The notes under the pieces were generated by a model, which did no database searches, was not told the origin of the DNA, and worked only from the letters and a program-made list of their open reading frames with translations. Below are positions 11,631-12,979 of a stretch of 64,000 bases of DNA, in pieces. The translations under genes and the position numbers were made by a program. Each line of letters starts with the position of its first letter. The first letter of the stretch is position 1. The DNA comes from Escherichia phage vB_EcoM_YN3: sequence record PV763136.1. One strand, 5' to 3'.

Positions 11631-11840
11631 TTTTTGTACCTCCTCTTCAATTGTTACCTATCCTATAGCATAGGCCCACCAGGTTTGCAAGCCTTCATTC
11701 TCCCCTACCTGGTCAGTTAGGTCCTGCCAGGCTGGCCCCGCCAGGTTGCAGCGGTTAGCGCATCAGGTTAGAAAAAATTTTTTGAAAAGTGTTGACAGCG
11801 GCCCCGCCAGGTGGCACAATATACATATCGAAAGGACGGC

Positions 11841-11910
11841 AGGCACCGGTGACGGGGGAGACAACCACCGGGGATGGGCGCTGCATGAAATGAGAACGAT
11901 TATCATTATC
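11841..11910. repeat. Composite repeat unit A: GC-rich structured element plus Fur-box-like palindrome
   Basis: GC element 11841-11876 (CCGGTG...CACCGG stem around GGGGGAGACAAC); GAGAACGATTATCATTATC at 11892-11910 matches Fur-box consensus at 16 of 19. Confidence 0.55.
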
Positions 11911-11972
11911 GTCTAAAAATTTATGCAAAAACTTCTTGCTTTCTTTGTCCTGTGTGATACTATAATAACAAG

Positions 11973-12046
11973 CCGGGGCAGTGGGGGCCGGGAGACAATC
12001 ACCGGGGGTGCCCGTTATTCTGCAAATGAGAATGATTATCATTCAA
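11973..12046. repeat. Composite repeat unit B: second copy of GC-rich element plus Fur-box-like palindrome
   Basis: Core GGGAGACAATCACCGG at about 11990-12005; GAGAATGATTATCATTCAA at 12028-12046 containing palindrome GAATGATtATCATTC. Confidence 0.55.
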
Positions 12047-12250
12047 AATTCTAAATGAGAACTTTTCGCATTTCATAAATTTAGTTAGCATGCTAATTAC
12101 CTACCGTGACAATTCTATATAAAATAATACCTCCTAAAATATTCCCATATAGAAATTTTAAAAATCCATTTCTGAAAACGAAAAATCGATTTCGTCCCCA
12201 AAAATTTCAGGTCGAGCGCCGGAACGATTTCCAGAAAATCTGATTCAGAA

Positions 12251-12341
12251 AACGAAAAACAGATCGAGTACTGAGAAATTTATCGAGAAAAATTTTCAGA
12301 AAATTCAATCTTTGAAACGAAAAACAGATCGAGTACTGAGA
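12251..12341. repeat. Direct repeat AACGAAAAACAGATCGAGTACTGAGA, two exact copies
   Basis: Exact 26-mer at 12251-12276 and 12316-12341; degenerate third copy near 12171-12200. Confidence 0.75.
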
Positions 12342-12649
12342 TAGATGTGCAGAAACTTCTTGATAATAATGGACTTATTGCTATAAAAGGTCAGAGGTGA
12401 GTTGGGAAAGCTCTGGTAGATGGGGGAGAGTGTGTGCGGAAAATCTGGAACGGTGATTTGAAGTACGGTACGAACGATAGGATGATCAGCACAGCTTATC
12501 GTGCCTGTCTTGAAAAAATCCATTTTAGTTTTCGATCCATTTTCTGATTTTCTAAGAATTTTAAAATATCCGGCCAGGTAAAATATCAAAAGGAGGAAAT
12601 CCATTTTAGAAATCCTCCTTATGTTTGATGTGCCAGGGATTTTCAAGTA

Positions 12650-12979
12650 TCAACTATCTTTGTTTTTAGGCTTGTACATGCGTAGAGGTATAGTTTTTAT
12701 AACACTCCATCTCCCCAGTCCTTCCCAGTTCCAGTTGTGGGCGTGATACCCGGTTATGCATGCACTACTGGAGTGATCATAGGCATAAGAGAACGCTATG
12801 CGTAACAGGTGGGGCCAGTCTCTCCACGGCTGTGGTCCGTAAGCCTTTCTCCAACACCGACACAAACTAAATGTCTCAAGAATAGGCAGGATAACAAATC
12901 CATACACCACCACCAAGATGATCAGCGCAATGATTGTCAGGAATACATACCCTGCAGTTGAAATGATGATCTCTGTCAT
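12650..12979 (-). CDS. Membrane protein (109 aa)
   Basis: N-terminal TM segment IISTAGYVFLTIIALIILVVVYGFVILPIL. Confidence 0.45.
   Translation of the reverse strand: MTEIIISTAGYVFLTIIALIILVVVYGFVILPILETFSLCRCWRKAYGPQPWRDWPHLLRIAFSYAYDHSSSACITGYHAHNWNWEGLGRWSVIKTIPLRMYKPKNKDS

Follow-up and report, generated by a model that had tools for sequence, protein, structure and literature searches.

In the 64,000-nucleotide stretch of Escherichia phage vB_EcoM_YN3 analysed here (PV763136.1; hereafter the window), minus-strand genes flank on both sides an island, at 11640-12650, which is non-coding and whose architecture is conserved across genera. A first-pass annotation of this DNA had offered a regulatory hub as one of its possible roles, and this is supported inasmuch as the island emerges as a conserved, non-coding regulatory hub. 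Our favoured reading, which we hold tentatively and at somewhat less than even confidence, is that the island carries a non-coding plus-strand unit, gated by the host iron sensor Fur, which would activate a cis-acting, origin-like DNA site; Fur binding, transcripts, iron gating and origin function are what we infer from the DNA only. The phage is a Vequintavirus, an rV5/FV3-like (rV5-like) coliphage. The island with its flanks shares 95.5% identity with Escherichia phage HMD-6 and 92% with FV3, and matches 227 phage records. To its left lie small early-type open reading frames (ORFs) on the minus strand, and to its right further small ORFs followed by the replication module (family-A DNA polymerase, DnaB-like primase-helicase, DNA methylase and PIF1 helicase). 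Coordinates of the features are collected in Table 1.

The island had been described as gene-free apart from two spurious ORFs, and comparison with relatives bears this out. The ORF at 11755-12042 (minus strand, 95 codons) is frameshifted in 3/8 close relatives, the one at 12305-12646 (minus strand, 113 codons) is broken in all eight, and GenBank records disagree over the island, giving differing ORFs, differing strands, or none. Columns 11800-12100 are 86-94% invariant among nine genomes, exceeding the flanking genes. A conserved gene across the span in relatives, or a lack of conservation in the elements, would have pointed the other way; we found no conserved gene and strongly conserved elements. 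That the span codes for small proteins, as the annotated ORF198/ORF199 of rV5 and ORF182/ORF183 of FV3 would have it, is hardly credible to us. The first of the above ORFs is open in five of the eight close relatives and a plus-strand ORF, 11923-12054, in seven, but one to three close relatives per ORF carry frameshifts, the ORFs lack Shine-Dalgarno sequences, their annotated strand and position vary between records, and the indels on the 5' side of the leader described below are not multiples of three between genera. The ORFs also overlap invariant promoter, leader and operator DNA, and we consider that they remain open because this DNA is invariant.

Outside the genus, BLAST matches are limited to about 11988-12079, that is, to the second copy of a GC-rich element (GC element 2) and the palindromes beside it, and each such match falls within a gap of about 1 kb flanked by minus-strand genes. 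This gap was seen in seven further lineages in all, namely Certrevirus (CR3, DU_PP_I, PhiTE), Seunavirus (SSE121, KE22), Mydovirus, Henunavirus, Serratia phage Kashira, Shewanella phage 1/4 and the Stephanstirmvirinae. On the plus strand they share one order: promoters with G+C-rich spacers (CCNGGCGGGG / GGCCCCGCCAGG type), the -10 box and, immediately after it, the GC element; then one to five palindromes at 29-bp spacing and another promoter; and finally three repeat units of 63-78 bp, short repeat families and the end of the upstream minus-strand gene. In the other genera the left part of the island is occupied by a small plus-strand gene (DUF7170 / phrog_4653, or phrog_19316); the window has no such gene and holds a second cassette of GC element plus palindromes in its place.

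Three tandem sigma-70 promoters, P1 to P3, are predicted on the plus strand of the island, opposed to the minus-strand early genes. P1 matches the consensus at 10/12 positions, was called by the promoter tool and is nearly invariant in nine Vequintavirus genomes. Its -35 box has the form seen in the phage early promoter class TGTTGAC-N16-19-TAnnnT, which occurs 10 times in the window against 0.76 expected, eight of them on the minus strand; P1 itself is oriented against the flanking genes. P2 is invariant in 10/10 aligned genomes, the divergent L094 included (L numbers are our handles for related sequences), and P3 is conserved in nine; at the position equivalent to P3 the other genera have a strong TTGACA-N17/18-GATAAT promoter. 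Promoter-like sites are also in excess in the islands of SSE121 (6 vs 2.0 expected, 5 on the plus strand) and CR3 (6 vs 1.3 expected, 4 on the plus strand). The candidate leftward promoter of gene 11448-11630 stands back-to-back with the plus-strand unit and falls below the -10 criterion of the promoter tool, which called minus-strand promoters at the equivalent position in L017 (975-947) and L011 (1262-1234). A minus-strand promoter TTGAAT-18-CAGAAT lying under the palindromes was considered and rejected, as other genera lose the key A of its '-10' (CTGAAT, CGGAAT, CCAAAT).

The shared motif GGCCCCGCCAGG, to which attention had already been drawn, occurs twice, at 11734 and at 11800, besides variants at 11673 and 11720, and our reading of it corrects the earlier one: it is a G+C-rich promoter-spacer motif, sitting in the -35/-10 spacers of the island promoters, at 2824-2832 (minus strand) and in other genera. 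FV3, DrSchubert and Alma (L001, L174 and L175, compared with window 11677-11739) have differing deletions which end in repeats of the GGCCC(N)CCAGG type, and we therefore regard the left ~100 bp of the island as dispensable and prone to repeat-mediated deletion. A role as a recombination hub, which had also been suggested, found no support: rV5 has its three GC copies in the same arrangement, and the sole rearrangements seen are these small deletions between GGCCC(N)CCAGG repeats.

The GC-rich element is indeed present in three copies, its core GGGAGACAAnCACCGG occurring with 0 mismatches at 11856-11871 (plus strand), 11990-12005 (plus strand) and 2875-2890 (minus strand). The shuffle expectation of 1.05 applies to matches with up to three mismatches; by a simple probability estimate, exact matches would arise by chance at about 1e-4. 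In all three copies only 4-14 nt separate the -10 box from the start of the element, which is G-rich, about 50 nt long and carries the conserved apical sequence GAGACAAnCAC; its 3' side aligns gap-free across genera. The first transcribed bases, AURGCG, pair with CGYYAU directly before the palindromes. This closing helix is 86.6% paired in 14 sequences, as against 25-54% for slid partners, and 84.8% in 34 distinct sequences (slid controls 25-55%). Two of its positions have the pair types GC6/AU4/GU2 and GC10/GU3/AU1, and a third has G.U in 9/14; since these G.U pairs would be C.A on the other strand, the plus strand is taken to be the folded one. The helix is kept by compensatory and wobble changes, with three pairs changed on both sides, in what is a small sample of related sequences.

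A covariance model built from homologs, which had been proposed as a check, was trained without any Vequintavirus sequence. It recovers GC element 2 (46 bits, E 6e-10, match start 11969) and GC element 3 (27.3 bits, E 1.3e-4) in the window, and only the core of GC element 1 (11851-11876, 15.6 bits, E 0.28); every match lies on the same strand as its promoter. At Rfam there was no gathering-score match in the window, and relaxing the threshold to E 10 for the island and to E 1 for six related loci brought chance-level matches only. The element was also considered as an intrinsic terminator and rejected, there being no U-tract after it.

The third copy is the same leader, on the minus strand. 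Downstream of GC element 3 there is a second promoter, TTGACA-17-TAACAT (2841-2813), followed by genes from 2758 down to 1597, and the whole cassette is arranged identically in rV5. The terminator hairpin of the upstream gene (window 2919-2956, minus strand) overlaps the -35 box and spacer of the GC element 3 promoter. In Mydovirus, too, there is a second terminator-promoter-leader cassette on the other strand about 7 kb from the island, comparable to that of GC element 3 (L007:4995-5047 and L005:4330-4382, both minus strand); it has another apical sequence (GGAGGAAAGUCA), and a Fur-like box (TGAGAATTACTCTCA) comes after it. Because GC element 3 heads ordinary genes and has this Mydovirus equivalent, we read the GC element as a putative cis-acting 5' leader of a class of phage promoters and not as a free-standing RNA gene. 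Of the structured non-coding RNA suggested by the first-pass annotation, then, the structured RNA on the plus strand is supported, while the free-standing gene is not, the element being a 5' leader directly after a promoter. Candidate roles for the apical GAGACAAnCAC are protein binding, stabilisation of the transcript by its paired 5' end, or an effect on elongation. Like lambda nut boxB and HK022 put, it would be a short structured RNA directly after early promoters, in several copies per genome, with a variable stem and a conserved apical sequence; unlike them, it has no boxA and shows neither sequence nor Rfam similarity.

One could instead suppose that the plus-strand unit makes a trans-acting regulatory RNA, either the short leader hairpins or a transcript of about 500-800 nt, with its conserved apical sequence bound by a phage or host protein or pairing with a target, and with the DNA repeats secondary. 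The conserved loop, the covarying closing helix, the lack of an Rfam match and the hairpin that bounds the unit would all suit such an RNA locus, as would a second conserved candidate RNA of about 90 nt which lies after another promoter in the islands of other genera. We nevertheless think it unlikely, though less so than the other alternatives discussed here. Sequences complementary to the conserved loop are not enriched in the window (10 vs 9.6 expected), no intrinsic terminator follows the leaders, the repeat units keep sequence and A-tracts and not pairing while their length varies from 63 to 78 bp, and the presence of the same leader at the start of ordinary mRNAs (2907-2863) suits a cis-acting 5' element more than a free small RNA.

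The claim that a Fur-like palindrome follows each plus-strand GC copy held up well, and the boxes score like genuine E. coli Fur operators. We used as references the 19-bp Fur consensus GATAATGATAATCATTATC and its 7-1-7 form TGATAATnATTATCA (TGATAAT-n-ATTATCA). A search with the Fur consensus, allowing three mismatches, gave two matches vs 0.03 expected; on the 7-1-7 motif the window boxes score 12/14 and 13/14, and 26 distinct sites from 14 phages average 11.5/14. For calibration, 20 kb of E. coli K-12 around the enterobactin genes was scanned in the same way, and the top matches were the three known Fur-controlled intergenic regions fepA-fes, fepD-entS and fepB-entC, with 14-16/19 and 11-13/14, the fepB-entC operator reaching 13/14 on the 7-1-7 motif. 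Over 37 sites the palindrome consensus is tAAATGAGAATgATTCTCATTTa, which is the 7-1-7 Fur motif with G/C at position 4/12. Where half-sites vary they turn to the canonical GATAAT, leaving the other half uncompensated (G/A at 9 sites, T/C at 4, T/A at none). Since the half-sites vary independently, the palindromes are best taken as protein-binding sites in DNA, and their interpretation as RNA hairpins is ruled out by this variation without compensation.

With a permissive score, boxes of at least 13/14 are confined within the window to two places, the island and a second gene-free region at 1-160. The island boxes are situated after one leader and before the UP/-35 region of the promoter that follows, ending 14-28 nt upstream of the next -35 in the window; in Certrevirus (CR3, PhiTE) the last box overlaps the -35 of the next promoter. 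With the enterobacterial operators fepA-fes, fepD-entS and fepB-entC the phage sites share palindrome geometry and the flanks AATGAnAAT-N-ATTnTCATT; their scores are equal or higher, and they too are clustered beside or over promoter elements. They differ in belonging to a virulent phage, in forming arrays at a fixed 29-bp spacing, in their systematic G/C at 4/12, and in that most of them come after one start site and before the promoter that follows. In the literature searched we found no description of Fur boxes in lytic phages.

The palindromes may be operators of a phage-encoded repressor and not of host Fur, making the island an autonomous phage switch, which we consider rather unlikely. 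TGAGAAT-N-ATTCTCA does differ systematically from TGATAAT-N-ATTATCA at the symmetric position 4/12, regular 29-bp arrays recall phage operator arrays, and another non-coding region holds a second box cluster. On the other hand, half-sites that vary take the canonical Fur form, the boxes equal genuine E. coli operators in score, and no conserved candidate repressor adjoins the island, the small plus-strand genes differing by genus and being absent from the window. Moreover, the sites are near-identical across phages, the Shewanella phage included, whose proteins and other intergenic DNA have diverged beyond alignment: from Shewanella phage to coliphages the box is identical, with the rest of the island unalignable. 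Because the box has stayed identical while its surroundings diverged, a conserved host protein fits better than a co-evolving phage repressor.

The right half of the island begins with an A+T-rich stretch, located at and just after P3, and continues into repeats. The exact direct repeat reported by the first-pass annotation is confirmed, measures 27 bp (12250-12276 and 12315-12341) and falls within three tandem, iteron-like units of about 65 bp. In these units box A is AAAATCCA / AAAATCTG and box B is GATCGAGTAC, at 12262-12271 and 12327-12336. Five lineages keep the unit core GATCGAG(A/T)AC, the number of units and their orientation. Certrevirus, Seunavirus, Mydovirus and Kashira each have three units with this core, spaced at 63-78 bp, and Henunavirus has a variant core in the same frame. 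That sequence is kept, pairing is not and length varies points to a site acting at the DNA level. Beyond the units, where the window has its conserved short-repeat block (12505-12590), CR3, SSE121 and PhiTE have CAAATATCA repeats in 2 to 4 copies.

Known arrays offer a mixed comparison. The units resemble the iteron arrays and repeat-built assembly sites of lambda ori, P1 oriR, P1 pac and lambda cosB in that one conserved core is repeated several times, always in the same direction, with A-tracts and GATC in the core, and differ from them in lying 63-78 bp and not about 20 bp apart, in being bipartite (box A, 22-23 nt, box B) and in having no DnaA boxes. Type III antitoxin-like repeats (ToxI / pseudo-ToxI) were rejected, as these have constant units of about 34-45 nt and those of the island are variable, at 63-78 bp. 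The pseudo-ToxI of PhiTE is a non-coding antitoxin mimic of an rV5-like phage (PMC3475682); it is, like the island, a non-coding locus with tandem repeats, placed in a gap between genes of a related phage, and unlike the island it has units half as long and not of variable length. No ToxI-like sequence was found in or near PhiTE's copy of the island.

The presence of three separate sites bearing A-tracts is reminiscent of lambda cosB and SPP1 pacL, and the GATC of the core of P1 pac. One may ask whether the bent ~65-bp units and short repeats are wrapped by a small terminase or a similar protein as a packaging (pac) or other nucleoprotein assembly site, with the promoters incidental. The repeats are conserved across genera, and relatives are reported to be circularly permuted and terminally redundant (PMC3475682), which implies a pac site. 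We judge this improbable for the island, where three conserved promoters are all directed into the repeats and from which the late and terminase genes are far away; the one record beginning within the island has the look of an assembly break.

At its right end the island has the hairpin noticed before (12585-12629). Its presence stands, and its main role had to be corrected to that of terminator for the minus-strand gene 12650-12979. The fold has z-scores of -2.9 on the minus and -2.2 on the plus strand, and because a change in three relatives (L172-174) keeps the pair as G.U on the minus strand and leaves A.C on the plus, we take the hairpin mainly to terminate the upstream minus-strand gene, although it folds equally well on the plus strand; probably it also stops the plus-strand unit. 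With a two-way terminator and convergent promoters, the island might be a transcriptional insulator or interference module separating the replication-gene operon from the downstream small early genes, with Fur tuning read-through. It does lie exactly at the junction where the terminator serving the minus-strand genes upstream gives way to the next block of genes, its plus-strand promoters face incoming transcription, and terminator and promoter overlap at the third cassette. Such a module would leave the iteron-like units, the short repeat families and the conserved leader loop unexplained, and we give it as little weight as the pac site.

The mechanism that we tentatively propose for a Fur-gated unit is as follows. 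P1 and P2 would each head a cassette of promoter, ~50-nt G-rich 5' leader RNA and one or two operators for host Fur. When iron is present, Fe-Fur would be bound between the leader of one promoter and the UP/-35 region of the next, where it could block polymerases coming from upstream and hinder initiation downstream. When iron is scarce, transcription would continue over the A+T-rich, low-stability DNA and the three ~65-bp iteron-like units and end at the two-way hairpin near 12600. As nothing is encoded there in the window phage, the plus-strand unit most likely acts in cis, and it would serve the transcriptional activation or priming of an origin-like nucleoprotein site. An origin is plausible. 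P1-P3 are directed into an easily melted A+T-rich segment and the iteron-like repeats, with no conserved ORF downstream, and the genes for PolA, the DnaB-like protein and PIF1 are near. The closest functioning counterparts are the T7 primary origin (tandem promoters phi1.1A/B plus an A+T-rich stretch) and T4 oriF/oriG (a promoter with a DNA unwinding element); the island resembles them in that its tandem promoters run into a low-stability duplex and no gene is transcribed, and the replisome of the phage is of the T7 type (PolA and a DnaB-like primase-helicase). In contrast to those origins, the promoters here are of the host sigma-70 type, three long iteron-like units and Fur operators are added, and the skew is unsupportive.

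Several results weigh against this proposal. As to the leader, its folding energy is barely better than that of shuffles (z 0.1 to -2.3), its inner helix is only about 59% paired, and RNAalifold on a plain MAFFT alignment gave no consensus structure, the helix being seen only in anchor-based and model-based alignments. As to Fur, the boxes lie 55-75 nt downstream of the preceding predicted start, which is unusual for Fur repression, and the phage consensus has G/C where the canonical box has T/A (TGAGAAT vs TGATAAT). As to the origin, there are no DnaA boxes in the island, and the consensus TTWTNCACA occurs once in the 64 kb vs 8.6 expected. The repeat spacing of 63-78 bp is unlike that of classical iterons, and GC skew, about -0.08 left of the island and -0.135 right of it, changes with a sign opposite to that expected of an origin, in a test which is weak in phages and with gene orientation the same on both sides. 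Finally, a larger, repeat-rich gene-free region at window 1-1590 is an equal or better origin candidate.

That region is the right part of a 2.6-kb ORF-free stretch (rV5 104013-106618) between convergent gene blocks. Four further Fur-like boxes (at 12, 30, 128 and 146) lie in it, together with TGACAYA and GTTTACA repeat arrays (about 430-690), and rV5 has CAAATATCA repeats there as well. Four of the six least stable 100-bp duplexes of the window fall in it. It is a strong candidate for an origin or pac site. The rV5 paper marks one ORF-free 'non-coding' box and located no origin by skew analysis (PMC3606486); this box most probably is the 2.6-kb gap, because rV5 has ORF198 and ORF199 annotated in the present island.

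Table 1. Features of the island, its related cassette and its counterparts (window coordinates unless a related sequence is named).
Feature	Position	Strand	Description
Candidate leftward promoter for gene 11448-11630	11663..11691	-	TTGCAA-N17-TATAGG, CCTGGTGGGCC in spacer; read from sequence, inferred
G+C-rich motif GGCC(C/A)CNCCAGG, four copies	11673..11811		starts 11673, 11720, 11734, 11800
Promoter P1 (predicted)	11792..11820	+	TGTTGACA-17-CACAAT (TTGACA-17-CACAAT), TG before -10; predicted start ~11827
GC element 1, G-rich 5' leader hairpin (putative)	11834..11885	+	apical GAGACAACCAC
Fur-type operator 1	11891..11910		TGAGAACGATTATCA; 17/19 to 19-bp Fur consensus at 11892-11910
Promoter P2 (predicted)	11936..11963	+	TTGCTT-16-TACTAT, extended -10 TG; read from sequence; predicted start ~11970
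GC element 2, 5' leader (putative)	11969..12020	+	apical GAGACAATCAC
Fur-type operator 2	12027-12041 (19-mer match in 12022-12046)		13/14 to 7-1-7 motif, 15/19 to 19-mer
Fur-type operator 3, weak	12056-12070		29 bp from operator 2
A+T-rich stretch (76% A+T)	12070..12169		second least stable 100-bp duplex of the 64-kb window
Promoter P3 (predicted)	12085..12113	+	TTAGCA-17-GACAAT, moderate match, read from sequence; predicted start ~12120
Three tandem iteron-like units, ~65 bp	12148..12351	+	A/T tracts, box A, 22-23 nt, box B
Fast-evolving spacer without conserved element	12352..12500		30-52% invariant columns vs 86-94% at 11800-12100
Conserved short-repeat block	12505..12590		ATCCATTTT at 12514, 12534, 12597 (also 12162); AAAATATC at 12563, 12580
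Hairpin, terminator of minus-strand gene 12650-12979	12585..12629	-	folds on both strands
Third cassette	2863..2946	-	promoter TTGTAA-16-TATACT (2946-2919), then GC element 3 (2907-2863)
Small plus-strand genes, island left part, other genera	L017:1083-1265, L013:1087-1266, L002:2573-2749; L014:1011-1277, L015:1028-1294, L003:2066-2332	+

Some further observations concern the islands of other genera. In every examined genus bar Vequintavirus they hold, directly after a promoter, the conserved candidate RNA of about 90 nt, ACGCCACCCCACGGCGWAAAGGCGGGGCUAAC...GGAAGGUGGAUCGCCGGUAGCUCG (L011:1330-1425, L017:1325-1420, L084 at ~1500-1590 of the reverse complement, L002, L003, L014 and L015). It includes a hairpin with covariation (ACCAGG/CCUGGU, ACCAG/CUGGU), its indels have lengths not divisible by three, and an Rfam search with it gave no match. 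Just upstream of the GC-leader promoter, GTAAA-N5-GTAAA, which has the form of the CpxR consensus, is conserved in Certrevirus, Seunavirus, Mydovirus and the Stephanstirmvirinae (L011:1425-1445, L017:1425-1445 and equivalents) and is absent from the window. The L002 record has a minus-strand coding sequence annotated over the DUF7170 reading frame. A tRNA-Met annotated on the conserved core in a Klebsiella phage record (OY978796) was treated as an annotation artefact, since ARAGORN finds no tRNA there (L002) or in the window; of the tRNAs annotated near the island in the same record, five in number, ARAGORN reproduced none.

A host origin of the GC-plus-Fur unit was rejected, as it has no BLAST match in 5,426 E. 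coli genomes, and a 14-mer scan of IMG/VR gave chance matches only. Among the records, about 16 named 'Campylobacter phage' (MG0656xx) are ~90% identical to E. coli rV5-like phages, and PQ002170, filed under Demerecviridae, starts inside the island and has an 80-bp end repeat labelled 'attL'.

No description of the island was found in the literature searched. The Certrevirus paper describes only a sigma-70-like early promoter class (PMC7344957), and as the box of the rV5 paper (PMC3606486) is probably elsewhere, it appears that neither the island architecture nor the leader motif nor the Fur arrays have been described before; each component is a known kind of element. The GAGACAAnCAC leader would be a new conserved RNA motif, masked in current annotation pipelines by spurious 'hypothetical proteins', and the island is a concrete candidate for the replication origin of this phage group or for another cis-acting site.

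Taken at its fullest, the proposal would be that the strictly lytic Vequintavirinae and their relatives use host Fe-Fur as an iron sensor, with Fur arrays and a new leader RNA gating an origin-proximal non-coding unit and so tying replication or developmental timing to host iron; we put this forward as a speculative possibility, and a doubtful one. The usual view of virulent phages is that their programme is fixed. Fur operators conserved in a control region would, if true, mean that such phages read the iron status of the host, and the boxes in the second non-coding region would then make up a small phage 'Fur regulon'. Since rV5-like phages find wide use in therapy and biocontrol, and since gut, urine, blood and laboratory broth have sharply different iron levels, the efficacy of these phages could be affected.

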